DNA of 64,000 nt from Burkholderiales bacterium (GTDB lineage Bacteria; Pseudomonadota; Gammaproteobacteria; Burkholderiales; SG8-39), in the NCBI GenBank assembly GCA_025458245.1, contig JALOSW010000002.1:4361-68360 (forward strand). The letters are read 5' to 3'. The notes below the pieces were generated by a model. That model worked only from the letters and a program-made list of their open reading frames with translations. It searched no databases and was not told the DNA's origin. Below, piece after piece: positions 22,859-51,660 of the stretch (position 1 is the first letter of the stretch; the number at the start of each line of letters is the position of its first letter). The translations under genes were made by a program, and so were the position numbers.

Positions 22859-22870
22859 GACTGAAGTTCA

Positions 22871-22965: not shown

Positions 22966-22968
22966 TGC

Positions 22969-24786: not shown

Positions 24787-24788
24787 GG

Positions 24789-26213: not shown

Positions 26214-26269
26214 CGTTTTGGCGGTTCCTTGGGCTTCACGGGCAGTCTAGCTCACTGCACCCTTCGAAT

Positions 26270-31476: not shown

Positions 31477-33018
31477 GTGACCGGCACCCCGACGGAAATC
31501 GAGCTGAAGCTTCTGCTCGAGCCGCGCGACGGCCGCCGACTGCTGCGGCATCCCGCGGTCATGGCGCTCAAAGCGGGGCGTGCGCGCACGCTGCGATTCG
31601 TCGCGACCTATTTCGACACGCCGGAGCGCGATCTCGGCCGGGCCGGCATCGCCTTGCGCGTTCGCCAGGAGGGCGCGCGCTGGATCCAGACCGTCAAGGC
31701 GGGAGGCGAAGGCGCGGGCGGGCTGCATCGGCGCGAGGAGATCGAGTGGCCGCTCGCCGCGGACCGCGTCGACCTCGCGCTTCTGGCGGACTCGCCGTTC
31801 GCGAAGCTCTTCTCGCGGCCGCGCGTGCGCGAGGGGCTCGCGCCGGTGTTCGTCACCGAGTTCACGCGCACCTCGGTGCCGCTCGCGTTTCCCGATGGCT
31901 CGGCAGGCGAGCTGGCGCTCGATGTCGGCGAAATTCGTGCGGCGGGCAAGGTCGAGCCGATCGCTGAAGCCGAGATCGAGATGCGTGGAGGCTCGCCGGC
32001 GACGGCTTTCGCGCTCGCGCTCGCGGTGTGCGACGACATCCCGCTGCGCCTCGGTGCGGCGAGCAAAGCCGAGAGGGGGTTCGCGCTCGCGGAAGCGCGC
32101 GCGCCGGGGCCGCGCAAGGCCGCCGCGGTGGCGCTGGATCCGCGTATGACCGCGGGCGAGGCGCTGCGGCGCATCGCGTGGGCTGCGATCGGGCAAATGC
32201 AGGCGAACGAGGCGGGCACCGTCGAGGCGGCCGATCCGGAGTACCTGCACCAGCTCCGCGTCGGCCTGCGCCGCCTGCGCTCGATCCTCGCGCTCGCGCG
32301 CGCGCCGCTCGCGGCGTCGATTCATGCGGCGTTGCTCGACGACTTGCGCGCGCTGCAGCAAGCGCTCGGGCCGGCGCGCGACTGGGACGTGTTCGCGACC
32401 GAGACGCTGCCGCCGATCGTCGCTGCGTTTCCCGCCGTGACGGGCCTCAAGGGCATCCGGGTGCGCGCGGGCCAGCTGCGACGGGCGCACGATCGGGAAG
32501 CGGCGGAGGTCGTCGCTGCGCGCGAGTTCCAGAAGCGTCTGCTGCGGCTCGGGCTCGCGCTCACCGACGCGACGCTGGCGCCGCGCGACGAGGCGTCGGC
32601 ATGGCTCGGAAAGCCCGCGCGCGAGTACGCCGCCGGCATTCTCGACTCGCGCCATCGCAAGCTCGGCAAGCGGGGCGCGCGCCTCGCCACGGCGACGGCG
32701 GAAGAACGCCACGCGACGCGCATTGCCGGCAAGAAGCTCCGCTACGCGGCGGAGTTTTTCGCCCCGCTTTTTCCGGGCAAGCGCGCGAAGCGCTTTGCCG
32801 GCGCGCTGGCGGAGCTCCAGGACGTGCTCGGGGCGCTGAACGACGCGGCCGTGACCACGAAGCTCCTCGGGGAGCTGGAGGGCGCGGGCAAGACGCCGCC
32901 AGATGCGGCCTCGGTCGGCATCGTGCGCGGCTGGGTGGGTGGCGCCGCGCACCATGGCACCACGGAGCTCGCCGCGCGCTGGAAGGCCTTCCGGCGCCAC
33001 GATCCGTTCTGGCGCTAG
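31477..33018 (+). CDS. CYTH and CHAD domain-containing protein
   Basis: GTG start 4 nt after the relA stop. EIELKLLL CYTH signature at the N-terminus. The C-terminal half has CHAD-type helices (YLHQLRVGLRRLRS, RHATRIAGKKLRYAAEFF). Confidence 0.88.
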   Translation: MTGTPTEIELKLLLEPRDGRRLLRHPAVMALKAGRARTLRFVATYFDTPERDLGRAGIALRVRQEGARWIQTVKAGGEGAGGLHRREEIEWPLAADRVDLALLADSPFAKLFSRPRVREGLAPVFVTEFTRTSVPLAFPDGSAGELALDVGEIRAAGKVEPIAEAEIEMRGGSPATAFALALAVCDDIPLRLGAASKAERGFALAEARAPGPRKAAAVALDPRMTAGEALRRIAWAAIGQMQANEAGTVEAADPEYLHQLRVGLRRLRSILALARAPLAASIHAALLDDLRALQQALGPARDWDVFATETLPPIVAAFPAVTGLKGIRVRAGQLRRAHDREAAEVVAAREFQKRLLRLGLALTDATLAPRDEASAWLGKPAREYAAGILDSRHRKLGKRGARLATATAEERHATRIAGKKLRYAAEFFAPLFPGKRAKRFAGALAELQDVLGALNDAAVTTKLLGELEGAGKTPPDAASVGIVRGWVGGAAHHGTTELAARWKAFRRHDPFWR

Positions 33019-34051: not shown

Positions 34052-35269
34052 TCACGCGGCGGGCGTCGCCTTCGCGGCACGAGGTGCGGCGGCGAATGCG
34101 GGCGGCTGTCTGCCGGACGCGTTTGCGACGAGGTCTGCGTAGAGCTGCGCGAGCCGTTCCGCAGTTGCGCTCGCGCTCCACGTCGCCGCGTAGCCGACGG
34201 CGCGCAGCGCGAGGCGCGAGCGCGCCGAGGGATCCCGCAGCACGCCCACGACGACGTCCGCGAATGCCGCCGGATCGTCCGGTGCGATGCGCGCGCCTTC
34301 GCCCTCGCTGAGCACATCGCGCGTGCCCATGACCGCCAGGGCGACCACCGGCGTGCCGCAGGCCATCGATTCCAACAGGACGAGGCCTTGCGTCTCGGTG
34401 CGCGAGGCGAACACGAAGAGGTCGGCGGCGCGGTAGCAGTCGGGAAGCTGGGTCGACCGGTCGAGGTATCCGATAAAGCGCGTACCGTCGGCGATTCCGA
34501 GCTCGCGCGCGCGCCGGGCGAGGCTCTCTTCGGCCGGTCCGGCGCCGCAGACGACGAGCAGGGCGTCGGGAACAGCGCGCCGGACATGCACCAGCATCTC
34601 CAGCAAGAAGCCGATGTTCTTCTCGAACGCGACCCGGCCCACGAAAAGGAGCACCGGGCGTTTCGGGGCGATGCCGTGCCGCGCGCGGAAGGCGCTGCCG
34701 TCGCCGCCGCCGAACGCGTGTGCCGGAAGGCCGGTCGGGATGACGTGCATCGGCGCCGTGACACCGTACGCGGCGAGCGTGTCGCGCATCGGGCCCGACG
34801 GCACGACCACCGCATCGAGCGCGTTGCACTGCCCGCGGGAGAAGCGGCGCGCGAGGCCCTTCATCCAGCCCTTCGGCGCGAACGGGACGTAGTGGTAGAG
34901 ATACTCCTCGAACAGCGTGTGATAGGTCGCGACCACCGGAACGCCCGCGGCGCGCGCATAGCGAAGCCCGGCGTAATGCGCGAGGAACGGCGTTTGCACG
35001 TGAACGAGATCGAAGCGCTCGCCGCCGAGCACGCGCTCGAGCCGCCCGACCCGGCCCCACTGCATCGCCCGATCCTCGGGGTCGCGCGGCACGGGCCGTG
35101 CGGGCAGCCGTACGAGGCCGGGCTCCGGCGCCTCGGCTCCCGGGTACGCCGGGCAGACGAGGACGCTCTCGTGTCCCAGGCGCGCGAGCTCCGCGCGGAA
35201 GGTCTCGATCGAGGTGGAGACGCCGTTGATGCGCGGGAAATAGACGTCCGAAACGAAGAGGATCCGCAT
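34052..35269 (-). CDS. GT4-family glycosyltransferase (Agt-like, candidate glycolipid synthase)
   Basis: 405 aa from MRILFVSDVYFPRINGVSTSI. C-terminal E-x7-E region FVFASRTETQGLVLLESMACGTPVV. Lies 11 nt downstream of the metallophosphoesterase gene. Confidence 0.85.
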   Translation of the reverse strand: MRILFVSDVYFPRINGVSTSIETFRAELARLGHESVLVCPAYPGAEAPEPGLVRLPARPVPRDPEDRAMQWGRVGRLERVLGGERFDLVHVQTPFLAHYAGLRYARAAGVPVVATYHTLFEEYLYHYVPFAPKGWMKGLARRFSRGQCNALDAVVVPSGPMRDTLAAYGVTAPMHVIPTGLPAHAFGGGDGSAFRARHGIAPKRPVLLFVGRVAFEKNIGFLLEMLVHVRRAVPDALLVVCGAGPAEESLARRARELGIADGTRFIGYLDRSTQLPDCYRAADLFVFASRTETQGLVLLESMACGTPVVALAVMGTRDVLSEGEGARIAPDDPAAFADVVVGVLRDPSARSRLALRAVGYAATWSASATAERLAQLYADLVANASGRQPPAFAAAPRAAKATPAA

Positions 35270-35280
35270 CCTGCCGGCCT

Positions 35281-36114
35281 TCAGGCCGCCTCCTCGGCAA
35301 CGACCGGCGGCGCTTCGATCTCCGGACGCGGCGAGCGCGGCTCGAGCGCCATCGGCTTCGCCGCGCCGGTCTGCCCCAGCCCGATCCGCAGGAGCTCCAT
35401 GCGGCCGTCGTCGTGCTCGACGATCGCCGTGCAGCTGTCGACCCAGTCGCCGCAGTTCAGGTAGGCGAGGCCGTCGACGTCGCGGATCGTCGCCGCGTGG
35501 ATATGTCCGCAGATGACGCCGTCGACGCCGCGCTCCCTGGCGTGCCGGACCACGGCCTCCTCGAAGTCGAAGACGAAGTTGACCGCTTTCTTGACCTTGC
35601 TCTTGGCATAGCCTGCGAGCGACCAGTACCCGGCGATGCCGAGGCTGCGGCGCGCCCACGAGAGAAGGACGTTCAAGCGCACGACGACCGCGTAGGCGTG
35701 GTCGCCGAGGACGGCGAGCCAGCGGTGGTACTTCGTCACGCCGTCGAACTCGTCGCCGTGCAGCAGGAGGTAGCGTCGTCCGTCCGCGGCCGTGTGCAGG
35801 TACTCGCGCAGCACCTGGATGTTGCCGAACGAGGTGCCGACGTGGTCGCGCGCGACCTCGTCGTGATTGCCGGGAATGAAGACGACATGGGTGTGGTGGC
35901 GTGCCCGCTTGAGGATCTTCTGCACGAGCGTGTTCTGGGCGGCGGACCAGTAGACGCCGCGCCGCTTCATCGCCCAGAAGTCGACGATGTCCCCGACGAG
36001 GAACAGGTAGTCGGAGTCGTAGCTGCGCAGGAGTTCGAGCAGCCGGTCGGCCTGGCACGCGCGGGTGCCGAGGTGGACGTCGGAGATGAAGATCGCGCGC
36101 ACGCGGCGGGTCAT
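35281..36114 (-). CDS. LpxH-like metallophosphoesterase (PlcP-type phospholipase C candidate)
   Basis: Start MTRRVRAIFISDVHLG, then GDIVDFW, GNHD, GHIH metallophosphoesterase motifs. The upstream in-frame ATG at 36183 is less likely. Confidence 0.85.
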   Translation of the reverse strand: MTRRVRAIFISDVHLGTRACQADRLLELLRSYDSDYLFLVGDIVDFWAMKRRGVYWSAAQNTLVQKILKRARHHTHVVFIPGNHDEVARDHVGTSFGNIQVLREYLHTAADGRRYLLLHGDEFDGVTKYHRWLAVLGDHAYAVVVRLNVLLSWARRSLGIAGYWSLAGYAKSKVKKAVNFVFDFEEAVVRHARERGVDGVICGHIHAATIRDVDGLAYLNCGDWVDSCTAIVEHDDGRMELLRIGLGQTGAAKPMALEPRSPRPEIEAPPVVAEEAA

Positions 36115-36278
36115 CGGCGCCGCCGCTCGTCCGATGCGCCGGTGCAGGGCGCGCTGCCAGGAGGCAGCCCGCCTCGGAGCCATTCAGGCGCGGTTGCGGA
36201 CCGCGACTTCGGGATCTTCGCTCGGACGAAAACGCTCATGGGCTGGGCGCTTGTATCTCGTTCTTCGCGTCGCCGCGC

Positions 36279-36334
36279 AGGGTAGGGGCCGCACATGACG
36301 CGTCCATGACGAATTCGTTGCGACGCGATGACCC
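36279..36334 (-). promoter_or_regulatory. Pho-box array (four 7-mers at exact 11-bp phase) plus -10 TACCCT
   Basis: Minus strand reads GGGTCAT cgcg TCGCAAC gaat TCGTCAT ggac GCGTCAT, then a 10-nt gap, then TACCCT. This is the same geometry as E. coli pstS. Confidence 0.6.
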
Positions 36335-36506
36335 GGCTTCGGGCGTGCGCGGGGAATCGGCCACGCGCCGGATGTGACGGCCGGATGAAGTTTTCGTGAA
36401 ACCGTCGCGAGATGCGGGTCGAGCGATTCTCACTGGCGACGGTGCGAGCTAAATTGGCTTCGCGCCTCGCGTTGCCGGCGCCTAACCCGAACAATTACTT
36501 CGCGCC

Positions 36507-39500
36507 GTGACCAAACAGAGCGCGAGCCGCCGCAAGCCGGCAGCAAGCTCGAACCGCACCCGCCGCACGCCGCGCCGAACGCGATTCGCCCCGCGCGCCG
36601 ACGCGGACGCGAGCGTCGCGGCGGGCGCGATCTCTCATGCCATGGCGGGGCTCGATGTCCTGCACGACACGGTGCCTGGTCGGGTCCGGTTTCGTTGCGA
36701 GGCGATCATCGACCGTCCCGCCCGTGCGCAGGCAGTCACTGCGGCGTTGGCCGATCTCGCCGGCGTCGCCAAGGCATCCGCGAGCGCACTGACCGGGTCC
36801 GTGCTCGTCGCGTTCGCGCCGCCCGCGACTTCGGCGTCGCTCGCCACCGCCGTCGCGGCCGCGGCGCGCGGCGCGCGCGCGAATGGGCGAGTCAGCGCGA
36901 ACGGCGCGTCCGGCGGCGCGGCGTCGGCTCCGCGATCGGCCATCCGTGACCGGCAGCCCGTACGCGTCGACGCGGGCGTTGCGCCGCACGCCGGACCCGC
37001 GTGGCACAGCCTGCCGCTGCAGCAGGCGATCTCGCGCCTCGCGGCAAATCGCATCTCGGGATTGGCCGACGCCGAGGCCGCGTTTCGGCTGCGCAAGTTC
37101 GGGCCCAACGAGCTGCCGCGCAGCGAGCCGCGTTCGGCGGGAGCGATCTTCCGGGAGCAGCTCACGACCCTCCCGATCGCGCTGCTCGACGCATCCGCCC
37201 TCGTCTCCCTGCTTACCGGCGGCCTCGCCGACGCGATCGCGATCGCCGGCGTGGTGCTGCTCAACGCGGGGATCGCGACCGCCACCGAGAGGCAGGCGGA
37301 GCGCACGATTCTCGGGCTGGCGAGCTATGCGCCGCACCCGGTGCGCGTGATCCGCGACGGGCGGCGGCACGAAGTGCTGCCCGCGGCTCTGGTTCGAGGC
37401 GATCTCATCGAGCTCGAGCCGGGCACGCTCGTTCCCGCCGACGCACGGCTCGTCGCGGCGGACGACCTGACGGTGAACGAGGCGGCGCTGACCGGCGAGG
37501 CACTGCCCGTCCACAAAGACGCCACGGTCAGGCTGCGTCCGGAGGTGCCTCTCGGCGACCGCGTCAACTTCGTGTTCCGGGGCACTGCCGTGACCGGCGG
37601 GCGCGGCCTGGCGATCGTTACGGCCACCGGCGCGGAGACCGAGATCGGCCAGATTCAGGGCCTGCTCGGCTCGGTGCGTCCGCCGGAGACGCCGATCCAG
37701 CGGCAGCTCGGCGAGGTCGGACGCGAACTCGTGATCGCGAACGGCCTCATCTGCGCCGGCGTGCTGGCGCTCGGGCTCTTGCGGGGCCAGGGTCTGGTGC
37801 CGATGCTCCGCAGTGCGATCGCGCTGGCGGTTGCCGCGATCCCCGAGGGCCTGCCCGCCGTCGCGACGACGACGCTCGCGCTGGGCGTGCAGGACATGCG
37901 CCGACGGAACGTGCTCGTGCGCAAGATCGAGGCTGTCGAGACGCTCGGCGCGGTGCAGGTCGTCGGTCTCGACAAGACCGGTACGCTCACGGAAAACCGT
38001 ATGGCGGCCGTCGCGATCCACGTCGGCGGCGAGCGCTACGCCCTCGACGGCGGCCGCATGACGCGCGACGGACAACCGGCGGACGGGGCGGCGAGGGACC
38101 TCGCTGCGCGCATGTTCGAAGCGGCGTCGCTTTGCAGCGACGCGACCCTCGGCAAGGCGAATGGCGCGACGATCGTCGGCGGGACGCCCACAGAGACCGC
38201 GCTGGTGCAGGCTGCGCTCGACCTCGGCGTCGATGTCGCCGCGGCGCGCCGCGCCGCGCCGGTGCTCGCGACCGTGCCGCGGACGCTGGGCCGCAAACGG
38301 ATGAGCACGCTTCACGGCGCCGGGCGCGCGCGCGTGCTCTACGTGAAGGGCGATCCGGTGGAAGTGCTCGAGCGCTGCAGCCACGTACTCGGGCGCGAGG
38401 GCCGGTTGCCGATCGACGCGGCCGCGCGGAGCGAGATCCTCAAAGCGAACCAGCGCATGGCCGGAAAGGCGCTGCGCGTGCTGGGCATGGCGTTTCGCCC
38501 GGGCGCGGGCGGTGCGAGGAGCGACAAGGGCCTCACCTGGCTCGGGCTGGCGGGACTGGCGAACCCGATCCGCGCGGGGTCCGTGCGGGCCATCAAGACG
38601 CTGCATGGCGCCGGCATTCGCACGGTCATGATCACCGGCGACCAGAGTGCGACCGCATTCGCGATCGCGCGGGAGCTCGACCTCGGCGATGGCGGCGAGA
38701 TCCGCGTCCTCGAAGCAGGGCAGGTGAAGGGCGTCGATCCCAAGGTCCTCGCTGCCATCGCTGCGAACCCGCACGTGTTCGCGCGCGTGAGCCCGGTCGA
38801 CAAGCTCGAGATCGTGCGCGCGCTGCAGGCCGACGGCCGCATCGTCGCGATGACCGGAGACGGCATCAACGACGGTCCTGCGCTCAAGGCCGCGGACGTC
38901 GGCGTTGCCATGGGTGCCGGCGGGACCGACGTCGCGCGCGAGGTCGCCGACATCGTGCTCGCCACCGACGATCTGGACGGCGTGGTCGAGGCCGTGCGCC
39001 TCGGGCGGGCGACCTACGCGAACATCCGAAAAGTGCTGCGCTTTCTGGTGAGCACCAACTCTGCCGAGACCATGGTCATGCTCGGTGCCGCCATCGCCGG
39101 GTGGCCCGAGCCGCTCAAGCCGATGCAGCTCCTCTGGCTCAATCTGGTGACCGACGTGCTGCCGGGCCTCGCGCTCGGACTCGAGCCGCCGGAGCCGGAC
39201 GTGCTTGCGGAGCCGCCGCACGATCCGCGTGCGCCGATCCTGGCGCCGCGCGACTTCCGACGGCTGCTGGTGGAAGGCTCGGTGCTCGGCGGCGCAACGC
39301 TCGCCGCGTTCCTCGCCGAAGGCGGTGCACGCGGTCCGCACCAGGCCGCGCCCACGCCCTCGCCGTCCCGCGCGAGCACGGTTGCGTTCCATGGGCTCAC
39401 ACTTTCGCAGCTCGCGCACGCGGTCGTCTGCCGCTCCGAGCACCATGGGATCCTCGAGGAGCTGCGCCGTCCGCCGAACCGAAAGCTCTACGCCGCGCTC

Positions 39501-39701
39501 GCTGCGTGCCTCGCGATGCAGGCGGGCGCGCAGCTCGCACCGTTCACGCGGCGGCTGCTCGGCCTCACGCCGCTGGCGGCCTCCGACCTCGCGGCGATCC
39601 TCGCAGTGGGCTTGGGCTCGGTGGCCGCCAACGAGGCGATCGGGGCGATCATTCGCGGGGCGCGGCACGCCCGCATCCCTACGGCAAGGAACACCTCATG
39701 A
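36507..39701 (+). CDS. P2-type (SERCA-like) cation-transporting P-type ATPase with N-terminal cysteine-less HMA-like domain
   Basis: DKTGTLTENRM, TGDGINDGPALKAADVGVAMG, TM4 motif AIPEGLPAV, TGEALPV. The N-terminal roughly 90 aa contain PGRVRFRCEAI...LAGVAKASASALTGSVLVAF. The start could be GTG 36507 or ATG 36642. Confidence 0.9.
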   Translation: MTKQSASRRKPAASSNRTRRTPRRTRFAPRADADASVAAGAISHAMAGLDVLHDTVPGRVRFRCEAIIDRPARAQAVTAALADLAGVAKASASALTGSVLVAFAPPATSASLATAVAAAARGARANGRVSANGASGGAASAPRSAIRDRQPVRVDAGVAPHAGPAWHSLPLQQAISRLAANRISGLADAEAAFRLRKFGPNELPRSEPRSAGAIFREQLTTLPIALLDASALVSLLTGGLADAIAIAGVVLLNAGIATATERQAERTILGLASYAPHPVRVIRDGRRHEVLPAALVRGDLIELEPGTLVPADARLVAADDLTVNEAALTGEALPVHKDATVRLRPEVPLGDRVNFVFRGTAVTGGRGLAIVTATGAETEIGQIQGLLGSVRPPETPIQRQLGEVGRELVIANGLICAGVLALGLLRGQGLVPMLRSAIALAVAAIPEGLPAVATTTLALGVQDMRRRNVLVRKIEAVETLGAVQVVGLDKTGTLTENRMAAVAIHVGGERYALDGGRMTRDGQPADGAARDLAARMFEAASLCSDATLGKANGATIVGGTPTETALVQAALDLGVDVAAARRAAPVLATVPRTLGRKRMSTLHGAGRARVLYVKGDPVEVLERCSHVLGREGRLPIDAAARSEILKANQRMAGKALRVLGMAFRPGAGGARSDKGLTWLGLAGLANPIRAGSVRAIKTLHGAGIRTVMITGDQSATAFAIARELDLGDGGEIRVLEAGQVKGVDPKVLAAIAANPHVFARVSPVDKLEIVRALQADGRIVAMTGDGINDGPALKAADVGVAMGAGGTDVAREVADIVLATDDLDGVVEAVRLGRATYANIRKVLRFLVSTNSAETMVMLGAAIAGWPEPLKPMQLLWLNLVTDVLPGLALGLEPPEPDVLAEPPHDPRAPILAPRDFRRLLVEGSVLGGATLAAFLAEGGARGPHQAAPTPSPSRASTVAFHGLTLSQLAHAVVCRSEHHGILEELRRPPNRKLYAALAACLAMQAGAQLAPFTRRLLGLTPLAASDLAAILAVGLGSVAANEAIGAIIRGARHARIPTARNTS

Positions 39702-40867
39702 CGCTCAAGGAAATGATCTTCACGTCGGAGTCGGTCACGCCCGGTCACCCCGACAAGCTCTGCGACCAGATCAGCGACGCTGCGGTCGATGCGTTCCTGC
39801 AGCAGGACGAGGACGCCCGCATCATCGTCGAGTGCGCCATCGCGACCGGCGTGCTCTTCCTCGCCGCCCGGTTCGCGGCCCAGGCGAACGTGGACATGCC
39901 GACGCTCGCGCGGGGTGTGATCGCCGACGTGGGCTACACGGGCGAAAGCTTCGACGCGCGCAGCTGCTCGATCCTCACGAGCTTCACGCCGCTCGACGGC
40001 TCGGCGCGTCCGGACGCGCGCCGTGACGGGTCGGAGCCCGCGCAGGAGCAGGCCAACGCGTTCGGATTCGCCTGCCGCGAAACGGCTGCGTTCATGCCGA
40101 TGCCGATCTGGCTCGCGCACAAGCTCGCGCGCGAGCTCGAGGCGGCGCGGGGACGCGGGCTCGATTGGCTGGGGCCCGACGGCAAGACCCAGGTCGCCGT
40201 GCATTACCGCGACGGGAAGCCGGTCGGGATCAACAGCCTGACCATCACTGCGGCGACCGCCGATCGCCCGTTGCGGAAATCGATGGTCGAGGAAGCGATG
40301 CGCGAACTGGTGATCAAGCGGGCCTTCCGCGACGAGGCGCTCAGGCCCGATGCTTCCTGCACCGTTCACGTGAACCCGGGCGGCCCCTACCTCGTCGGCG
40401 GGCCGGCGAAGCATTCGGGCCTCACCGGGCGCAAGAACGGCATCGACACCTACGGGGAATACGCACGCCAGAGCGGGGCGGCGCTCTCGGGCAAGGATCC
40501 GTCGCGTATCGACCGGATCGGCGCGTACGCGGCGCGCCACGCTGCGAAGAACATCGTCGCCGCCGGCCTCGCCGAGCGCTGCGAGGTGCATCTCTCGTAT
40601 GCGATCGGGAGCGCACACCCGATCAGCGTGGCGGTCGACACCTTCGACACGGGCAGGATCCCCGACGACGACATCGCCGATCGCGTCCTGCAGGCCGCCG
40701 ATTTCCGGCCTGCGGCGATCGAAGCGCGCTTCGGCCTGCGCCGGCGCGCGGCCGCGGCCGGCGAGCGGGGGTTCTTCAAGCCGCTCGCCGTGTACGGGCA
40801 AGTCGGTCGCGTCGACCTCGACGTGCCGTGGGAGGCCGTCGACCTCGCGGCCGATCTCGCGCGATGA
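39698..40867 (+). CDS. divergent S-adenosylmethionine synthetase (MetK) paralogue
   Basis: 389 aa. IFTSESVTPGHPDKLCDQISDAAVD, GPDGKTQV, GLTGRKNGIDTYGE, LSGKDPSRIDRIGAYAARHAAKNIVAAGLA align with MetK. The ATG overlaps the ATPase stop (ATGA). Confidence 0.85.
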   Translation: MTLKEMIFTSESVTPGHPDKLCDQISDAAVDAFLQQDEDARIIVECAIATGVLFLAARFAAQANVDMPTLARGVIADVGYTGESFDARSCSILTSFTPLDGSARPDARRDGSEPAQEQANAFGFACRETAAFMPMPIWLAHKLARELEAARGRGLDWLGPDGKTQVAVHYRDGKPVGINSLTITAATADRPLRKSMVEEAMRELVIKRAFRDEALRPDASCTVHVNPGGPYLVGGPAKHSGLTGRKNGIDTYGEYARQSGAALSGKDPSRIDRIGAYAARHAAKNIVAAGLAERCEVHLSYAIGSAHPISVAVDTFDTGRIPDDDIADRVLQAADFRPAAIEARFGLRRRAAAAGERGFFKPLAVYGQVGRVDLDVPWEAVDLAADLAR

Positions 40868-40885
40868 CGCGGACGCGCGCCGGGG

Positions 40886-41320
40886 TCAGTCGGCCGCGCG
40901 GCGTGCGCGCCGGAAGAGTTCGGTCGCGTACCAGAACAACGTGACCGCAGGCGGGAGGATCCGTTTCTCGCCGATCTGCAGAAGTCCGAAGACAGCGAAC
41001 GCAGCGGCCGCGAGCGCGGGTGCGGCGCGCGCGGTCGGCACGAGCGGTTGATCGCGGCCGGCATCGGGGTCGGCCGCGACGAGCTGAAGCATCCCCGCGC
41101 GCACCGCGCGTTCGGCGTATTCGTCGAACCGACCCTCGTGGGTCATCACGACCGTGCCGCTGAACGCGCGGATGCTCACCGTTTCGATGCCATCCAGTTC
41201 GCCGAGCCGGGTGGCGATGGCGGCGAGTGCGCCGGCGTCGCCGGCGTGCTCGCGGAATCGCAGCCGCGTGCGGCCCTCCATGGCATGTGCCAACTCGGCG
41301 CGCGGCGCATGTTCAGGCAT
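40886..41320 (-). CDS. HMA-like (cysteine-less, HMA_2-type) domain membrane protein
   Basis: 144 aa. HAMEGRTRLRFRE...LGELDGIETVSIRAFSGTVVMTH parallels the ATPase N-terminal domain. C-terminal hydrophobic segment AAPALAAAAFAVFGLLQIG. Confidence 0.6.
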   Translation of the reverse strand: MPEHAPRAELAHAMEGRTRLRFREHAGDAGALAAIATRLGELDGIETVSIRAFSGTVVMTHEGRFDEYAERAVRAGMLQLVAADPDAGRDQPLVPTARAAPALAAAAFAVFGLLQIGEKRILPPAVTLFWYATELFRRARRAAD

Positions 41321-41666
41321 TGGCGGTCGCCTCGGCTGCGGCGCGGCGCGTCACTCGCTTGGCGGTCTTGCGCGCGGGAGATCTGGCTCTGCCGTCCGAC
41401 GCGCGCTTGCGCGCGGGCGCGGCCCCGCCCGACGAGGCCGGCGCGGACGCGGTTGTCGCGGCTTCGAGACGGGCCTCGGCGTAGGTGTCTTCGAGCGTCT
41501 CAACGAACTCGACCGCCTTGACCTGAACCTGGCGCGCGAGCACCAGCGCTGCCTTGATGATTTCCTTCAACGCCGGTTGACTGTTGCGCGAAACGACCGG
41601 CGCGGCCAGCGCGAGGACGGCGCCTGCGAGTGCGCCGAGCGCAAAGGGAACGATGGGAGCTGCCAT
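41313..41666 (-). CDS. small membrane-anchored protein, DUF5132-like
   Basis: 117 aa from MAAPIVPFALGALAGAVLALAAPVV, followed by an amphipathic helix and a basic tail. AAGGAA RBS. Its stop overlaps the next gene by 8 nt. The family call is from memory. Confidence 0.5.
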   Translation of the reverse strand: MAAPIVPFALGALAGAVLALAAPVVSRNSQPALKEIIKAALVLARQVQVKAVEFVETLEDTYAEARLEAATTASAPASSGGAAPARKRASDGRARSPARKTAKRVTRRAAAEATANA

Positions 41667-45036: not shown

Positions 45037-45045
45037 GAGAACGCC

Positions 45046-46971
45046 ATGACCAAGCATCTCGACGACATGCTCGTCAGCAACGCCTCCGCCAACCCCACGT
45101 TCGACGAGATCCTGCAGGCCTCGGTGACGCGCCGGCGCTTCCTCGGCATCGCCGGCGCGGTGGTGTCGCTGCCGGCGTTCGCCGTGCTCACGGGCTGCGC
45201 GACCAGCGACATGGGCAGCGCTCCGACCATCGGCTTCGCGTCCGTGCCGCCATCGACCGAGGACCGGTTCATCGTGCCGCCCGGTTACCGCGCGCAGGTG
45301 CTCTACCGCTGGGGCGACCCGGTCGGCATGGCGAGCGGACTGCCCGCGTTCCGTTCCGACGCGTCGAACTCGGCGGAGGACCAGGCGCTGCAAGCCGGCA
45401 TGCATCACGACGCGATCGAGTTCTTCGCGCTCCCGGAGGGGCCGGGCGGCGCGACGCGCGGACTGCTCGCGATGAACCACGAGTACACCGACGATGGGCT
45501 GCTGCACGCCGACGGCATGAAGACCTGGAGCGCGGAGAAGGTGCGCAAGTCGCAGGCGGCGCACGGCGTGTCGGTGATCGAGGTCGAGTTCGCGGGCGGC
45601 GAATGGCGCGTCGTGCGGCCCTCGCCCTATGCGCGGCGCGTCACCGCGAGCACGCCGATGACGATCGCCGGTCCAGCCGCCGGCAGCGAGTTCGTCAGGA
45701 CGGCCGCGGATCCCGAGGGCCGCGAGGCGCGCGGCACGCTCAATAACTGCGCCGGCGGACGCACGCCGTGGGGCACTTACCTGACCTGCGAGGAGAACTT
45801 CAACGGCTACTTCGCGGCGGGCGCGACCATCGCGGCCGACCAGGGGCGCTACGGCATCCGCAAAGGGGGCTGGGGATATCGATGGCACGAGTTCGACTCG
45901 CGCTTCGATCTCGCCCAGAACCCGAACGAAGCCAACCGCTTCGGCTGGGTCGTGGAGATCGATCCCTACGATCCGCAGTCCAAGCCGGTGAAGCGCACCG
46001 CGCTCGGCCGGGTCAAGCACGAGGGCGCGACGCTGACGCTCGCCGCCGACGCGCGGGTGGTGGTCTACACGGGCGACGACGAGCGCTTCGAATACGTCTA
46101 CAAGTTCGTGTCGCGCGACCGCTACGATCCGGCGAAGGGGAAGGCGAACGGTGCGCTGCTCGACCACGGCACGCTGTACGTCGCGCGGTTCGACGCCGAC
46201 GGGTCCGGACAATGGATCGCGCTCGAGCACGGCGCGAACGGGCTCACGGCGGCGAACGGCTTCCCGGACCAGGCGGCGATCTGCATTCGCACCCGGCAGG
46301 CGGGCGATCAGGTCGGCGCGACCAGGATGGATCGCCCCGAGTGGATCGCGGTCCACCCCGTCACCAAAGAGGTGTACTGCGCGCTCACCAACAATTCAGA
46401 GCGCGGGGGCAAGGGACAGGTCGGACCGGATGCGGCGAATCCGCGTGCCGCGAACCTCTACGGCCACATCGTCCGCTGGCGCGAGGCGGGGGGAGACCCG
46501 GCGGCGACACGCTTCGAGTGGGACGTGTTCGTCCTCGCGGGCGACAAGCAGAATCCCGATCCCGCCCGGCGCGGGACCGTCAAGGGCGACGACTTCGGCT
46601 GTCCGGACGGACTGTCGTTCGACGCGCGCGGCATTCTCTGGATCCAGACCGACGCCTCGTCCGGCGCGATGCGCAGCGCGGACTGGGCGCGCATCGGCAA
46701 CAACCAGATGCTCGCGGCGAACGTCGCGACCGGCGAGATCCGCCGCTTCATGACCGGTCCCCGCAACTGCGAGGTCACCGGCGCGACGCTGACGCCCGAT
46801 GGACGCACGATGTTCGTGAACATCCAGCATCCTGGCGAGACGCCGAGCGAGCGCTCGGATCCCGCGAATCCGCGGCAATACTCGAACTGGCCCGACCACG
46901 ATCCTGCGGGCCGCCCGCGCTCGGCGACCGTGGCGATCCGTCGCGAGGACGGCGGCGTCGTGGGAACCTGA
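45046..46971 (+). CDS. phoX: PhoX-family alkaline phosphatase (Tat signal, probable lipoprotein)
   Basis: 641 aa. Twin-arginine SVTRRRFLGIAG followed by lipobox LTGC. DUF839/PhoX body (VPPGYRAQVLYRWGDP, NCAGGRTPWGTYLTCEE, MDRPEW). Confidence 0.9.
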   Translation: MTKHLDDMLVSNASANPTFDEILQASVTRRRFLGIAGAVVSLPAFAVLTGCATSDMGSAPTIGFASVPPSTEDRFIVPPGYRAQVLYRWGDPVGMASGLPAFRSDASNSAEDQALQAGMHHDAIEFFALPEGPGGATRGLLAMNHEYTDDGLLHADGMKTWSAEKVRKSQAAHGVSVIEVEFAGGEWRVVRPSPYARRVTASTPMTIAGPAAGSEFVRTAADPEGREARGTLNNCAGGRTPWGTYLTCEENFNGYFAAGATIAADQGRYGIRKGGWGYRWHEFDSRFDLAQNPNEANRFGWVVEIDPYDPQSKPVKRTALGRVKHEGATLTLAADARVVVYTGDDERFEYVYKFVSRDRYDPAKGKANGALLDHGTLYVARFDADGSGQWIALEHGANGLTAANGFPDQAAICIRTRQAGDQVGATRMDRPEWIAVHPVTKEVYCALTNNSERGGKGQVGPDAANPRAANLYGHIVRWREAGGDPAATRFEWDVFVLAGDKQNPDPARRGTVKGDDFGCPDGLSFDARGILWIQTDASSGAMRSADWARIGNNQMLAANVATGEIRRFMTGPRNCEVTGATLTPDGRTMFVNIQHPGETPSERSDPANPRQYSNWPDHDPAGRPRSATVAIRREDGGVVGT

Positions 46972-47162: not shown

Positions 47163-49271
47163 CTACACCGGCTTCTGCTCGCCGCCGAGGAGCATGAGCA
47201 GTTCGTCCTGCGCTCGGCGCGCCCGGCCGCGCGGCACGCGTCGGGTGTACACGCCGTTCGCATCCATCTCCCAGGCCTGGCTGTTGTCGGCGAGATAGGG
47301 TCGGAGCCCTTCACGGATCACGCGCTGCTTCAGGCTCTTGTCGAGCACCGGGAACGCGAGCTCGATGCGGCGGAAGAAGTTGCGGTCCATCCAGTCGGCG
47401 CTCGAAAGATAGACGGACTCCTTGCCGTCGGCATGGAAGTAGAAGACGCGCGAGTGCTCGAGAAATCTGCCGACGATCGAGCGCACGCGGATGCGTTCCG
47501 AAACGCCGGGGATGCCCGGACGCAGGGCGCACACGCCGCGAACAATGAGGTCGATCTCGACGCCCGCCTGCGAGGCCGAGTAGAGCGCGTCGATGACGTC
47601 CGGCTCGAGGAGCGCATTCATCTTGGCGATGATCCGCCCGCGCCTGCCCGCTTTCGCGATGCGCGTCTCGTTGCGGATCGCGTCGATGACGTTGTTGTGC
47701 AGCGTGAACGGCGCCTGCCAGAGGTGCTTCAGCTTGCTCGCCTTGCCGAGGCTCGTGAGTTGCACGAAGACGTCGGCCACTTCCGCGGTGATCGCTTCGT
47801 TCGCGGTGAAAAGGCCGAAGTCCGTGTAGAGGCGCGCCGTGCGCGGGTGATAGTTGCCGGTCGACAGATGGGCGTAGCGGCGCAGCTTGCCGTCCTCGCG
47901 CCGCACGACGAGAAGCGCCTTGGCGTGCGTCTTGTGACCCACGACGCCGTAGACGACATGGGCGCCGACCTCTTCCAGCCGCGCCGCCCAGTTGATGTTC
48001 GCCTCTTCGTCGAAGCGCGCCTTCAGCTCGACCACCGCGGTCACTTCCTTGCCGTTCGTGGCCGCCTCGATCAGCGCTTCCATGAGCACGGAGTCGGTGC
48101 CGGTGCGATACACGGTCTGCTTGATCGCGACCACGTTCGGGTCGCTCGCAGCCTGCTCGACGAATTCCACGACCGGCGCGAAGCTCTGGAACGGATGGTG
48201 CAGCAGGATGTCGCCGTCGCGCACCGCCTCGAAGATGTCGCGCCCCTTCTTGAGGCCCTTGCGCAAGGCCTTGGGCAAACCCGGCATGAACGGCCGGAAG
48301 AGCAGATCCTCGCGATCGATCCCGCCCGGCACCTGCATCAGCCGGACGAGGTTGACCGGCCCGTTCACCTGGTAGAGATCCGCGGGGCCGAGCTGGAACT
48401 GCTCCAGCAGGAACTCGACCATCTGCGCCGGGCAGTCGTGCGCGACTTCCAGGCGGACCGCGTCGCCGAAATGGCGCTGCGGCAACTCGCCCTGCAGCGC
48501 GAGGCGCAGGTCCTTGACGTCCTCTTCCTCGACGAAGAGATCGCTGTTGCGCGTGACGCGGAACTGGTAGCAGCCCGTGGTCGTGCGCCCCGCGAACAGC
48601 TCGCCGACGTGCTCGTGCAGGATCGAGGTCAGGAAGACGAAATTGATCGCGTCCTTCGCCGCCAGCTCCCTGGGCAGCCGGATCACGCGCGGCAGGATGC
48701 GCGGCGCCTGCACGATCGCGGCGCGGGAATCGCGGCCGAAGGCGTCGCGGCCCTCGAGTTCGACGGCGAAGTTGAGGCTCTTGTTGAACACGCGCGGGAA
48801 GGGGTGCGCCGGATCGAGCCCGATCGGCGTGAGCACCGGCAGCATCTCGCGCTCGAAATAGCTGCGGATCCAGGCGCGCTGCGCCTCGGTGAATTCGGAG
48901 CGGCGCAGGAACCGGATGCCCTCGCGGGCGAGATCCGGGACGATCACCTTCTGGAAGAGCTCGTACTGGCGCTGCACCAGCGCATGCGCGCCCTGGGAGA
49001 CGCGCGCGAAGACTTCGCGCGCGCTCATGCCGTCGGGGCCGATGCCGGGCACGCCGAGCTTGATCTGCTCCTTCAGGCCGCCGACGCGCACTTCGAAGAA
49101 CTCGTCGAGATTCGAGCTGACGATGCCGAGGAACCGCAGGCGCTCCAGCGCCGGCACGCGCTTGTCCTCGGCCTGGGCGAGCACGCGCCGATTGAACTCG
49201 AGAATCCCGAGTTCGCGATTGAGCAGGCGGCTCTCCGGCGCGGCGAGCGGGGTTCCGGCCTTGATGAGCAT
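47163..49271 (-). CDS. ppk: polyphosphate kinase 1
   Basis: 702 aa. LNRELGILEFNRRVL, SNLDEFFEVRV, and two PLD-like HKxxxxD-type regions (GHKTHAKALLVVRRE; RFLEHSRVFYF). Confidence 0.96.
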   Translation of the reverse strand: MLIKAGTPLAAPESRLLNRELGILEFNRRVLAQAEDKRVPALERLRFLGIVSSNLDEFFEVRVGGLKEQIKLGVPGIGPDGMSAREVFARVSQGAHALVQRQYELFQKVIVPDLAREGIRFLRRSEFTEAQRAWIRSYFEREMLPVLTPIGLDPAHPFPRVFNKSLNFAVELEGRDAFGRDSRAAIVQAPRILPRVIRLPRELAAKDAINFVFLTSILHEHVGELFAGRTTTGCYQFRVTRNSDLFVEEEDVKDLRLALQGELPQRHFGDAVRLEVAHDCPAQMVEFLLEQFQLGPADLYQVNGPVNLVRLMQVPGGIDREDLLFRPFMPGLPKALRKGLKKGRDIFEAVRDGDILLHHPFQSFAPVVEFVEQAASDPNVVAIKQTVYRTGTDSVLMEALIEAATNGKEVTAVVELKARFDEEANINWAARLEEVGAHVVYGVVGHKTHAKALLVVRREDGKLRRYAHLSTGNYHPRTARLYTDFGLFTANEAITAEVADVFVQLTSLGKASKLKHLWQAPFTLHNNVIDAIRNETRIAKAGRRGRIIAKMNALLEPDVIDALYSASQAGVEIDLIVRGVCALRPGIPGVSERIRVRSIVGRFLEHSRVFYFHADGKESVYLSSADWMDRNFFRRIELAFPVLDKSLKQRVIREGLRPYLADNSQAWEMDANGVYTRRVPRGRARRAQDELLMLLGGEQKPV

Positions 49272-49321
49272 GCGGGGGGATCGATGAGGTGGGACGCGAC
49301 GATGTTACACGACGGCCCCCG

Positions 49322-49355
49322 GTTAAATACAACTGTCATATCTCTGTAATAGGGT
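49322..49355 (+). promoter_or_regulatory. consensus Pho box CTGTCAT-ATCT-CTGTAAT
   Basis: CTGTCAT at 49333-49339 and CTGTAAT at 49344-49350. A weaker GTTAAAT lies one phase upstream. A possible -10 TAGGGT lies at 49350-49355. Located in the ppk/phoU divergent gap. Confidence 0.7.
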
Positions 49356-49383
49356 GCGGGACATCGCCGACGGGAGTCCTGCC

Positions 49384-50094
49384 ATGCAGTCACCGAGCCA
49401 TACGTCCAAGGAGTTCGACGCCGAGCTGGAGCTCCTGCGCCGGCAGATCCTCACCATGGGCGGGATCGCCGAGCAGCAGATCCGCTACTCGGTCGAGGCG
49501 CTGCGCACGGGCGACCCGAAGCTCGTGACGCGCGTGGCGGCGGAGGAGCTGCGCATGAACGAGCTCGAGCGGAAGGTGGACGAGCTGGTCGCGAGCGTCA
49601 TCGCGCGCCGCAATCCCACCGCCGGCGATCTGCGCATGGTGATGGCGATCCTCAAGACGGGGACCGATCTCGAGCGCATCGGCGACGAGGCGAAGAAAAT
49701 CGCGCTCGCGAGCCGGTCGCTTTCGACGGGCGATCGGCTGCGGCATCCGGGGTACGCCGAAATCGCGCAGGTCGCCGCGGTCGTCGTCGAGATGCTGCAG
49801 CGTTCGCTCGATGCGTTCGCGCGCCTCGATCTCGTCGACACGCCCGAGATCGTGCGTCTCGACGACGAGGTCGACGACCGCTTCCGCGCCATCCTGCGGC
49901 AGCTGCTGACCTACATGATCGAGGATCCGCGCACGATCTCGCCGGCGCTCGAGACGATCTTCGTCGCCAAGGCGCTCGAGCGGATCGGCGACCACGCCAA
50001 GAACATCTCCGAGTATCTGATCTACATGATCAAGGGAAAGGACGTTCGCCACCTGCCGGTCGCTGCGCTCGAGGAGGCGGTGCGCGGAGGTTGA
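49384..50094 (+). CDS. phoU: phosphate signalling complex protein PhoU
   Basis: 236 aa from MQSPSHTSKEFDAELELLRRQILTMGG. Duplicated E(R)IGD motifs (DLERIGDEAKKIA, ALERIGDHAKNIS). Confidence 0.93.
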   Translation: MQSPSHTSKEFDAELELLRRQILTMGGIAEQQIRYSVEALRTGDPKLVTRVAAEELRMNELERKVDELVASVIARRNPTAGDLRMVMAILKTGTDLERIGDEAKKIALASRSLSTGDRLRHPGYAEIAQVAAVVVEMLQRSLDAFARLDLVDTPEIVRLDDEVDDRFRAILRQLLTYMIEDPRTISPALETIFVAKALERIGDHAKNISEYLIYMIKGKDVRHLPVAALEEAVRGG

Positions 50095-50127
50095 TCGCCG
50101 CGGTTGCGACGCCCGGTGGGGGGTGCT

Positions 50128-51660
50128 ATGGTCGACGCGCACAGGGGACGGCTCAGGCTCGTGGACTACGATTCGCTCGCTGCCGTCGATCTCGGCTCGA
50201 ACAGCTTTCATCTGCAGATCGGCCGCGTCGTCGACGACCAGATCTACCCGCTCGACAGCCTGCGCGAACCGGTGCGGCTCGGCGCGGGTCTGACGCGCGA
50301 CAAGCGCCTCGACCGGGCCACGCAGGCGCGTGCTCTGGAGTCGCTCGCCCGCTTCGGCGAGCGGCTGCGCGGGTTCGCGCCCGGGGCGGTGCGCGCGGTC
50401 GGCACGAACGCGTTGCGCGTCGCCAAGAACGCGGCCGACTTTCTCGCCGAGGCGGAGCGGGCGCTCGGCTTCCCCATCGAGGTGATTTTCGGCCGCGAAG
50501 AGGCGCGCCTCATCTATCTCGGCGTGTCGCACGCGCTGCCGCCTTCGCCCGAGCGCCGGCTGGTGATCGACATCGGCGGCGGCTCCACCGAATTCATCAT
50601 CGGCACCGGCTATGACCCGCAGGTCATGGAAAGCCTGCCGATGGGATGCGTGAGCTACTCGTTGCGGTATTTCCCCGACGGCCGCATCGACAAGGGTGGC
50701 ATGAAGCGGGCCGAGCTGGCCGCCTCCAACGAGGTGCAGCGCATCGTGGGCGAATACCGGCGGGTCGGCTGGCGCCACGCGATCGCGTCGTCGGGCACCG
50801 CGCGGTCGATCGCCGCGGTGATCGCGGCGTTGGGCTGGGCGGACAACGGCATCACGCCGGACGGGCTCGAGCGCCTGCGCAATCACGTTCTCAAGGCCGG
50901 CGCCGTCGACCGGCTCGATCTTCCGGCGCTCAAGGCCGACCGGCTCGCGATTCTTCCGGGCGGCGTCGCGATCATGTCCGCGATCGTGTCGGAACTCGGT
51001 CTCGCGCAAGTGGAAGTGTCCGACGGCGCGCTGCGCCAGGGCGTGCTCTACGACCTTCTCGGCCGGGTGCAGCACCACGACATGCGCGAGGCGACCGTGG
51101 CGCAGTTCATGCGGCGCTACCATGTCGACGCGGCGCAGGCCGGACGCGTCGAGGCGCTCGCCTTGCGCCTGCTCCGCGAGGTCGCGGGCCGGCCGCGCGC
51201 GGACGAGGTGCAGCTCCTGCGCTGGGCGGCTTCGCTGCACGAGATCGGACTGTCGATCGCGCAGGCGGGCTACCACAAGCACTCGGCGTACATCCTGTCG
51301 AACGCCGACATGCCGGGCTTCTCCCAGGCCGATCAGCGGCGGCTCGCGCGCATCGTCCTCGCGCACCGCGGCAAGCTCACCAAGATCGAGAGCCTGCCGA
51401 TGCGCAGCGCCGACTGGGATCTCATCTTCGCGGTGCGCATCGCCGCGCTGTTCTACCGGAGCCGGGTGGACACGGTGCTCCCGCCGCTCGGATGCCGCGA
51501 GACCGAGAGCGGTTTCCAGTTGCTCCTGCCGTCGCCGTGGCTCGAGGCGCATCCGCTCACCGCCGCGGCGCTCGAATCCGAGGAAGACGACTGGAAGGCG
51601 CTCGGCATGCGCCTCGACGTCAAGGCCGTCGCCGCCGAGAAGCTGGCCGCGGCGGGATGA
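50128..51660 (+). CDS. ppx: exopolyphosphatase (Ppx/GppA family)
   Basis: 510 aa from MVDAHRG. AAVDLGSNSFHLQIG, GTNALR, EEARLIYLGV, DIGGGSTE, and an HD-like C-terminal domain. Confidence 0.93.
   Translation: MVDAHRGRLRLVDYDSLAAVDLGSNSFHLQIGRVVDDQIYPLDSLREPVRLGAGLTRDKRLDRATQARALESLARFGERLRGFAPGAVRAVGTNALRVAKNAADFLAEAERALGFPIEVIFGREEARLIYLGVSHALPPSPERRLVIDIGGGSTEFIIGTGYDPQVMESLPMGCVSYSLRYFPDGRIDKGGMKRAELAASNEVQRIVGEYRRVGWRHAIASSGTARSIAAVIAALGWADNGITPDGLERLRNHVLKAGAVDRLDLPALKADRLAILPGGVAIMSAIVSELGLAQVEVSDGALRQGVLYDLLGRVQHHDMREATVAQFMRRYHVDAAQAGRVEALALRLLREVAGRPRADEVQLLRWAASLHEIGLSIAQAGYHKHSAYILSNADMPGFSQADQRRLARIVLAHRGKLTKIESLPMRSADWDLIFAVRIAALFYRSRVDTVLPPLGCRETESGFQLLLPSPWLEAHPLTAAALESEEDDWKALGMRLDVKAVAAEKLAAAG

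Follow-up and report, generated by a model that had tools for sequence, protein, structure and literature searches.

The window analysed here, a stretch of 64,000 nucleotides from a Burkholderiales bacterium (contig JALOSW010000002.1), carries at positions 36507-41666 four genes, two on the forward strand facing two on the reverse strand, which very probably work as one functional unit. The forward pair encodes a P2-type cation pump with an N-terminal CoBaHMA domain and, translationally coupled to it, a paralogue of methionine adenosyltransferase (MAT, or MetK) whose methionine pocket appears to have been rebuilt. The opposite pair encodes a second, free-standing CoBaHMA protein (Pfam HMA_2) and a small protein that we assign to DUF5132. 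The module spans at least seven bacterial phyla. Its features are the following:

36507-39701, + strand: P2-type cation-pumping ATPase, 1064 aa, GTG start (Pfam and NCBIfam)
36648-36860, + strand: CoBaHMA (HMA_2-like) domain of the ATPase, about aa 48-118, without CxxC (HMA_2 match)
39698-40867, + strand: MetK-like MAT-fold paralogue, 389 aa (three S-AdoMet_synt domains)
40886-41320, − strand: HMA_2 protein, 144 aa, a CoBaHMA domain followed by a C-terminal helical hairpin (PF19991)
41313-41666, − strand: putative divergent DUF5132 protein, 117 aa, with a hydrophobic and a long helix before a disordered, basic tail

The ATG of the MetK-like gene overlaps the TGA of the ATPase gene as ATGA (4 nt), 18 nt separate the convergent stops of the MetK-like and 144-aa genes, and the end of the 117-aa gene overlaps the start of the 144-aa gene by 8 nt. 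Checked in the sequence, the four genes and their three junctions lie exactly where an earlier note on this DNA had placed them.

The pairing of pump and MetK-like protein holds from both sides. We scanned genomes, one per species, with the MetK-like protein as query and annotated 80 loci: a CoBaHMA-ATPase lies directly upstream on the same strand in all 50 informative loci whose MetK is of the window subtype, and in none of 29 loci with canonical MetK. In metagenome contigs, a MetK-like gene follows 31 of the 37 CoBaHMA-ATPases with room downstream, as against none of about 22 ATPases that lack the N-domain. The stop of the ATPase and the start of the MetK-like gene overlap in 17 of 28 lineages; they are separated by 4-15 nt in nine and by 35-38 nt in the remaining two.

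Of 24 informative lineages, 20 have the DUF5132 and HMA_2 genes with the module; DUF5132 always comes first, and the two genes often overlap. Their position relative to the pump takes one of two forms. In Alpha-, Beta- and some Gammaproteobacteria the pair stands downstream of the MetK-like gene and converges on it, as in the window. Chloroflexota, Desulfobacterota and Nitrospirota have a colinear operon in the order DUF5132, HMA_2, an optional repeat protein of ~230 aa, ATPase and MetK-like gene. The earlier note had read two pairs facing each other as one unit; the unit is conserved, but the facing arrangement is only one of its two layouts.

Proteobacterial hosts include Burkholderiales, Methylocystis, Methylosinus, Methylocapsa, Rhodoplanes, Pseudolabrys, Methylomonas, Methylumidiphilus, Methylococcaceae and Nitrococcus. 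Further afield the module is found in Dissulfurispiraceae, Thermodesulfovibrionales, Binataceae, Scytonema, Trueperaceae, Desulforhabdus, Syntrophales, Desulfobacterales, Roseiflexus and Caldilineales. The note had named a lack of co-occurrence outside this genome as grounds to refute its reading; instead the four families occur together far more widely, among Nitrospirota, Desulfobacterota, Chloroflexota, the Alpha-, Beta- and Gammaproteobacteria and further groups. They are a real, ancient and loosely modular unit. We rejected chance adjacency of the four genes because the arrangement recurs across phyla.

The repeat protein, absent from the window, is amphipathic, about 225-325 aa long and rich in V, G, A, K and E. 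In Nitrospirota, Desulfobacterota and Gammaproteobacteria its gene lies between those of HMA_2 and the ATPase, or else next to the module (L026 1024-1719; L088 9855-10532; L089 10070-10759; L172 8570-9331; L038 5115-6854; L018 12405-13124). Pfam gave no confident family for it or for other small neighbours of the module, only faint Phasin/Senescence matches.

The ATPase matches E1-E2_ATPase (E 1.3e-45) along with Cation_ATPase_N, Cation_ATPase_C and Hydrolase, and its closest solved relatives are Listeria LMCA1, human SPCA1 and SERCA (E ~1e-127 to 1e-112). The catalytic motifs TGE, DKTGT, TGDQ and GDGxND are present in the window protein and invariant or nearly so among 44 orthologues. The same is true of the ion ligands: the Glu of PEGLP in transmembrane helix 4 (TM4), Asn and Glu in TM5, and Asn, Thr/Ser and Asp in TM6. 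The TM4 motif IPEGLPAV reported by the earlier note is indeed there (AIPEGLPAV). Its term 'SERCA-type' is right in so far as the pump is P2-type; 'P2-type, closest to LMCA1, SPCA and SERCA' describes better a protein that scores below the equivalog cut-offs. By these motifs, the ATPase should be an active cation pump with Ca2+-type sites; its most likely cargo is Ca2+ or a similar divalent cation, which it would export from the cytosol.

Gene context supports Ca2+ as the pumped ion, because a CAX exchanger replaces the ATPase, shares its operon or adjoins it. In Methylococcus, CAX takes the place of the ATPase after the DUF5132 and HMA_2 pair; in L170 both transporters are in one operon; in Methylomonas rivi CAX adjoins the module. 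The Methylococcus variant (L086 8274-10952, CP104311) reads EcsC, DUF5132, HMA_2, Na_Ca_ex (CAX) and is flanked by two PhoX genes, near PhoU. A 370-aa neighbour in that locus, checked as a possible calcyanin, gave no family and no glycine-zipper repeat.

Two further observations concern the module loci. The ATPase is split into two consecutive open reading frames in L039 6966-10002 (a Syntrophaceae metagenome-assembled genome, MAG) and L048 1891-5483 (a Caldilineales MAG); a frameshift, a pseudogene or faulty assembly could explain this. In Methylocystis and Methylocapsa, short MgtE-type proteins, made of a CBS pair and the MgtE membrane domain, adjoin the module (L001 13108-13713; L002 5381-6370; L028 12219-13232; L003 3732-3911).

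The N-terminal domain of the pump and the 144-aa protein belong to one named family. HMA_2 (PF19991) matches the ATPase at aa 55-104 with E 3.5e-5 and ~24.2 bits, below the gathering score of 30, and matches the 144-aa protein with E 3.7e-7 and 30.7 bits, just above it; relatives of the latter reach 36-51 bits and cover model positions 10-153 of 154. An hhalign comparison of the pump N-domain profile with that of the free-standing HMA_2 proteins gives 98% probability (E 2.4e-13, 67 columns). By this profile match the two are homologous. The earlier note had anticipated both their mutual resemblance and their likeness to an HMA-type (heavy-metal-associated) model, as well as the lack of CxxC, which is found in neither sequence; the 144-aa protein has no cysteine at all. 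The pattern it gave, H-x3-GR, is exact for the 144-aa protein (H12-x3-GRxRxR), but the ATPase has one residue more (H53-x4-G58R59xR61xR63 ... T96G). Among the 44 pump orthologues G58, R59, R61 and T96 are invariant, H53 is kept in 37 and R/K63 in 40. Among the small HMA_2 proteins H12, R17 and R19 are invariant.

The AlphaFold2 (AF2) model of the 144-aa protein (pLDDT 76) has the order β0-β1-α1-β2-β3-α2-β4 (E7-14, E17-21, H29-40, E45-51, E56-61, H65-74, E79-81), followed by two helices (H95-117, H123-143). It is the ferredoxin-like β-α-β-β-α-β fold with an extra N-terminal strand. The C-terminal hairpin carries a conserved PPAxTLFWYA motif. Foldseek found nothing significant for this model in the PDB, only weak ferredoxin-like and HMA matches; matches to PF00403 (HMA) are likewise weak.

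The 'HMA-like' domain is thus the CoBaHMA family, Pfam HMA_2. Gaschignard and co-workers reportedly found this domain in 2024 in membrane proteins of transport and lipid metabolism, including fusions to transporters. CoBaHMA, first recognised in calcyanin, is a branch of the HMA superfamily that lacks cysteines; its hallmarks are an extra β0 strand with a conserved His and basic residues on β1 and β2 (PMC8890360; bioRxiv 10.1101/2024.07.07.602159). Acidic phospholipid is named as its hypothesised ligand by authors citing Gaschignard 2024.

A second, shorter HMA_2 type (84-148 aa, 'YYVHxVPGRLRVK...', with another C-terminal helix) often flanks the module in lineages outside the Alpha- and Betaproteobacteria. 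Examples lie at L018 11764-12147, L039 11239-11685, L045 12172-12552, L049 11793-12161, L088 8559-8813, and L172 7169-7498 and 9457-9852.

The 117-aa protein has by itself no Pfam match at E<=1. Of its 21 aligned family members, however, 18 match DUF5132 (best E 2.3e-16), and nearly all matches of the family profile in a collection of 5.8 billion sequences carry PF17195; its own membership of PF17195 follows by transitivity alone. The AF2 model, with a hydrophobic helix at 5-21, a long helix at 30-74 (pLDDT 81-89) and a basic disordered tail, agrees with the published description of DUF5132 in its N-terminal TM-type helix and its long helix. We therefore take it to be a divergent DUF5132 protein, in line with the DUF5132-like label of the earlier note.

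The MetK-like protein matches S-AdoMet_synt_N, M and C, and retains the residues that bind ATP and tripolyphosphate (PPPi) or take part in catalysis: H14, D16, K17, K165, R244, K245, K265 and D271 (E. coli numbering throughout). Across its clade H14, D16, K17, E42, D163, R244, K245 and K265 are kept, position 271 is D or E, and K165 is found in 42 of 53 members.

Four contacts to methionine are replaced. E55 is changed to R or K in 52 of 53 members (R in the window) and Q98 to L or M in 48 of 53 (L in the window), while D238 is H and K269 is R in all 52 members compared and in the window protein. The human equivalents are E70, Q113, D258 and K289: in human MAT-α2, Glu70, Gln113 and Asp258 hydrogen-bond the N and O atoms of methionine, and patient mutations of D258 and K289, like mutations of the gating loop, lower the synthesis of S-adenosylmethionine (SAM) and leave the phosphatase activity (tripolyphosphate hydrolysis) unaffected (PMC6850014). 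In the clade the GAGDQG signature becomes xA[HQK][EN]Q[AV], and the gating-loop region is also remodelled.

In a neighbour-joining tree the MetK-like proteins are monophyletic. Identity within the clade has a median of 52% and a minimum of 43%, compared with 58-80% among canonical MATs and 37-51% between the two groups; as these values suggest, the paralogues are more divergent and faster-evolving than canonical MAT. The clade signature is present in all of the 120 closest 90%-identity clusters and in 22 of the top 150 50%-identity representatives.

Judging from the aligned residues, the methionine pocket has been rebuilt from acidic to basic around an intact triphosphate site. Because the four methionine contacts are replaced and the triphosphate site is kept, SAM synthesis is presumed lost, and the protein is unlikely to be a SAM synthetase. 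It would instead use ATP/PPPi together with a different co-substrate, probably an anionic one, or be a tripolyphosphatase. The earlier description as a MetK paralogue is borne out by all three domains, but the rebuilt pocket makes it more than a mere paralogue. In two unrelated lineages, genes resembling ArsC or low-molecular-weight phosphatases directly follow the MetK-like gene (L037 11596-12198; L038 11350-11778).

The surroundings of the module add a further element. About 24 kb of the window (29226-53066) are rich in genes of phosphate, polyphosphate and lipid remodelling by Pfam and NCBIfam. Around the module stand SpoT, a CYTH-CHAD protein, a TehA/SLAC1 channel, a plcP-agt-like pair, an OlsB-like gene, PhoX, PPK1, PhoU and PPX, together with a SixA-like phosphatase and a GDT1/UPF0016 cation/H+ antiporter; PAP2, GT4 and diacylglycerol kinase genes lie upstream of the DUF5132 gene. 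Those with coordinates are:

31477-33018, + strand: CYTH-CHAD protein (Pfam)
34052-36183, − strand: plcP-agt-like pair (metallophosphoesterase and GT4), divergent from the ATPase (Pfam, NCBIfam)
36295-36311, − strand: candidate Pho-box-like direct repeat CGTCATggacgCGTCAT, between the plcP-like gene and the ATPase
45037-46971, + strand: PhoX (Pfam, NCBIfam)
47163-49304, − strand: PPK1 (Pfam, NCBIfam)
49327-50094, + strand: PhoU (Pfam, NCBIfam)
50095-51660, + strand: PPX (Pfam, NCBIfam)

The plcP-like protein resembles LpxH, with a score far below the LpxH cut-off. In proteobacterial methanotrophs plcP-agt is a lipid-remodelling pathway under phosphate limitation; the same paper, on Methylosinus, contains no proteomic or transcriptomic table on the module genes (PMC9239053).

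Similar neighbours recur elsewhere. PhoD, PPK1, PPX and His_Phos_1 adjoin the module in Nitrococcus, pstSCAB-phoU is divergent from the colinear operon in L088 and L129, PstB or PstS is near the module in Methylosinus, Desulfobacterales, Methylumidiphilus and others, and CYTH-CHAD lies inside the cluster of Methylocystis echinoides. Phosphate genes occur in the flanks of 13 of 94 module loci, as against two of 54 control loci. We also counted Pho-box-like repeats, defined as TGTCAT-N5-TGTCAT with at most two mismatches, in the 400 bp that precede the ATPase gene or the 300 bp that precede the DUF5132 gene. They are found in nine of 26 lineages, where 119 permutations of the hexamer gave a mean of 1.1 and a maximum of 5. 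In Proteobacteria, therefore, the module appears to be tied to the phosphate and polyphosphate economy through the Pho regulon; for the window copy, Pho regulation is unproven and its site only a candidate.

The best Pho-box-like match in the window is TGTCATatctcTGTAAT at 49334-49350 (+), with one mismatch; it lies at the divergent junction of ppk1 and phoU-ppx and overlaps the listed start of phoU. Upstream of the ATPase, a block of 19 nt, GATGAAGnnTTCGTGAAAC (36384-36402), is almost identical in the closest relative, L006, in the midst of intergenic DNA that has diverged between the two; it may be an operator or promoter element. A scan for sigma-70 promoters found none, and terminator-like sites were weak. 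The window has a G+C content of ~70%. At 19556-26246 it also encodes a DUF2126/transglutaminase-like protein of 1103 aa and a circularly permuted ATP-grasp protein, a cluster with no relation to the module.

We propose that the four genes make one membrane module around a P2-type pump that would remove Ca2+ from the cytosol. The N-terminal CoBaHMA domain of the pump, the membrane-anchored HMA_2 protein and the single-pass DUF5132 protein would be its regulatory or targeting set. The basic surfaces of the CoBaHMA domains may be sensors of an anionic ligand (acidic phospholipid or polyphosphate) through which the pump is tuned; sensing is suggested by analogy with the regulatory HMA domains of P1B pumps and the lipid-sensitive tails of PMCA, and polyphosphate is added as a candidate because of the gene context. 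Since the DUF5132 and HMA_2 pair also accompanies CAX, it may be a generic accessory of Ca2+ transporters. The MAT-fold partner would carry out ATP/PPPi chemistry on a substrate other than methionine, and, being translationally coupled to the pump, would be made in matching amounts. In Proteobacteria the unit would belong to the phosphate-stress response and might handle Ca2+ as reserves of polyphosphate and phospholipids are drawn upon. Both polyphosphate and anionic phospholipids bind Ca2+ and are being broken down at that point, which makes a Ca2+ link plausible.

We give this mechanism, taken in full with its pump, CoBaHMA sensing, MAT-fold partner and phosphate setting, an even chance of being right. 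Conservation and the order of the genes, the homology of the domains, the intact motifs of the pump, the remodelled pocket and the enrichment of Pho-box-like repeats and phosphate neighbours are observed; we infer the identity and direction of the ion, the CoBaHMA ligand, the reaction of the enzyme and a physical complex.

Several observations weigh against it. On the side of the pump, the position of SERCA E908 in TM8 is Gln in every one of the 44 orthologues. The ATPase also stays below all curated Ca-ATPase equivalog cut-offs (TIGR01522, 535 against 798; TIGR01116, 498 against 703; TIGR01517, 372 against 507) and passes only the generic TIGR01494, so that its ion specificity is something we infer. 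On the side of the enzyme, the MetK-like protein passes the metK cut-off of TIGR01034 (326.9 against 309.4) and could for that reason bind methionine in an unforeseen way. As to the unit itself, six CoBaHMA-ATPases on metagenome contigs have no MetK-like gene, some ATPases carrying the small pair alone. Conversely, L005 8001-10342 (Burkholderiales, CP070753) has a MetK-like gene and, convergent with it, HMA_2 and DUF5132, but the surrounding 8 kb contain no P-type ATPase, so the enzyme and the small pair can persist without the pump. With exceptions both ways, the coupling of ATPase and MetK-like protein is strong but not obligate. As to phosphate, for most module loci the 7-10 kb on hand contain no phosphate gene, and the lineages positive for Pho-box-like repeats are all Proteobacteria. 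The site upstream of the window ATPase (36295-36311) has two mismatches, which is at chance level within the window, and the plcP-like gene, not the ATPase, is its nearer neighbour.

Among other explanations, the one that survives best, though we think it unlikely, is that the pump loads Ca2+ into an intracellular inclusion of polyphosphate or carbonate, akin to an acidocalcisome or to intracellular amorphous calcium carbonate (iACC), instead of exporting it. The pump or CAX would do so together with the hairpin and single-pass proteins and, in some phyla, a phasin-like repeat protein. CoBaHMA was discovered in calcyanin, the iACC marker (PMC8890360), and in Microcystis ccyA and cax have DUF5132 and CoBaHMA genes as co-expressed neighbours (bioRxiv 10.1101/2024.07.07.602159). 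Methylumidiphilus and Methylococcus, both reported with ccyA, carry modules of this kind; CHAD, PPK1 and PPX are among the neighbours, and in Nitrospirota, Desulfobacterota and Gammaproteobacteria the phasin-like amphipathic repeat protein (~230 aa) sits within the operon. However, bacterial P2 pumps and CAX exchangers are usually exporters and the module is far commoner than ccyA. No calcyanin-like gene was seen among its annotated neighbours, as judged without a reference calcyanin sequence.

It is somewhat less probable still that the MetK-like protein is a genuine, divergent SAM synthetase, co-regulated with the pump as phosphate-starved cells need extra SAM, for instance for P-free betaine lipids or methylations; the four genes would then share regulation and not mechanism. 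The TIGR01034 score and the three MAT domains fit such a role, as do the catalytic His14 and Lys165, the metal-binding Asp residues and the many lipid-remodelling genes of the window. The replacement of four methionine main-chain contacts, fixed across phyla, and the loss of GAGDQG argue against it. Moreover, a stop/start overlap across seven phyla suggests more than co-regulation, and the neighbourhood has no conserved SAM-using lipid enzyme (BtaA, BtaB).

That the pump serves another cation, Mg2+, Mn2+ or, in methanotrophs, lanthanides, seems to us doubtful, more so than either of the foregoing. The MgtE-type neighbours in Methylocystis and Methylocapsa, the presence of SPCA, a Ca2+/Mn2+ pump, among the best structural relatives, and the many methanotrophic hosts speak for it. 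So does TM8, where a near-invariant His follows three residues after the invariant Gln, unlike the arrangement in SERCA. Yet the ligands of TM4, TM5 and TM6 are of the Ca2+-site type, and CAX co-occurs with the ATPase or substitutes for it. Hosts such as Roseiflexus, Desulfobacterales, Syntrophales, Trueperaceae and Scytonema are not methylotrophs.

Bolder, and to our minds marginally less credible again, is the idea that the MAT-fold partner is a new enzyme whose charge-reversed pocket takes an anionic substrate, complexed with a CoBaHMA-gated Ca2+ pump and serving or building a store of Ca-polyphosphate or carbonate. It would displace tripolyphosphate from ATP in the manner of MAT, with phosphate, polyphosphate or another acid as substrate. 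The DUF5132 protein and the HMA_2 hairpin protein would be part of the complex, and the store would be under phosphate control.

A unit for heavy-metal (Cu/Zn/Cd) resistance, or chance adjacency, is highly improbable: the weak PF00403 and copper-chaperone fold matches and an RND CzcB-like system near one locus are set against the absence of metal-binding cysteines (no CxxC, none in the 144-aa protein), a PEGLP motif in place of the CPx of P1B pumps with best scores to P2 families, and cross-phylum conservation, so that we rejected the first for want of such cysteines and because the pump is P2 rather than P1B, the second being excluded by conservation.

Returning to the proposed Ca2+ module, its parts resemble several known systems. 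With the P2A Ca2+ pumps LMCA1, SPCA1 and SERCA the ATPase shares the P-type catalytic motifs and the TM4, TM5 and TM6 ligands; it differs in its N-terminal CoBaHMA domain, the Gln at E908 with its His, the scores below cut-off and the coupling to a MAT fold. The CoBaHMA domains have, like that of calcyanin, a ferredoxin-like HMA fold with a β0 strand, a conserved His, Arg/Lys on β1 and no metal-binding cysteines, but are fused to a P2 pump or free-standing with a hairpin, and not to a glycine zipper. From MetK/MAT the paralogue keeps the three-domain fold and the residues for ATP/PPPi binding and catalysis, whereas its methionine contacts, GAGDQG and gating loop are changed and it forms a separate, faster clade beside the pump. 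The system of CopA and CopZ, a P1B pump and a soluble HMA chaperone, likewise has a domain on the pump and a free copy encoded nearby; here, however, the pump is P2, the domains lack a metal site, the free copy is anchored in the membrane and the ligand presumably anionic.

The closest genomic parallel is the ccyA neighbourhood of Microcystis, with DUF5132, CoBaHMA-DUF454Cter and cax (bioRxiv 10.1101/2024.07.07.602159). As there, DUF5132 and CoBaHMA-hairpin genes adjoin a Ca2+ transporter, down to the CAX trio in Methylococcus; the module differs in having a P-type ATPase and a MAT paralogue, no calcyanin gene and many non-cyanobacterial hosts.

The CoBaHMA family and the DUF5132/CoBaHMA/cax neighbourhood are thus already known. 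For the near-obligate coupling of a CoBaHMA pump to a MAT paralogue, the rebuilt pocket, the four-gene unit and its tie to phosphate and polyphosphate, full-text searches found no description. Nor did literature searches find any function described for the module, as the earlier note had said. A paper on the lanthanome makes no mention of the module genes.

We know of no P-type pump that is genetically locked to a soluble ATP-cleaving or MAT-fold enzyme; the module may be the precedent. The database label 'methionine adenosyltransferase' may hide a new activity in proteins whose substrate pocket has been rebuilt and fixed across phyla, and a new enzyme may be concealed in what otherwise looks like a regulated pump of the P2 cation type. 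If that enzyme and its store are real, the module would be a bacterial counterpart of acidocalcisome chemistry. CoBaHMA and DUF5132, so far known from calcium-carbonate biomineralisation alone, here appear as accessories of Ca2+ transporters, in a setting that can be tested in cultivable hosts (Methylocystis, Methylosinus, Methylocapsa, Methylomonas, Methylococcus). Altogether, the module would connect the handling of Ca2+ to lipid remodelling and to the economy of phosphate and polyphosphate, a link that is poorly understood in bacteria.

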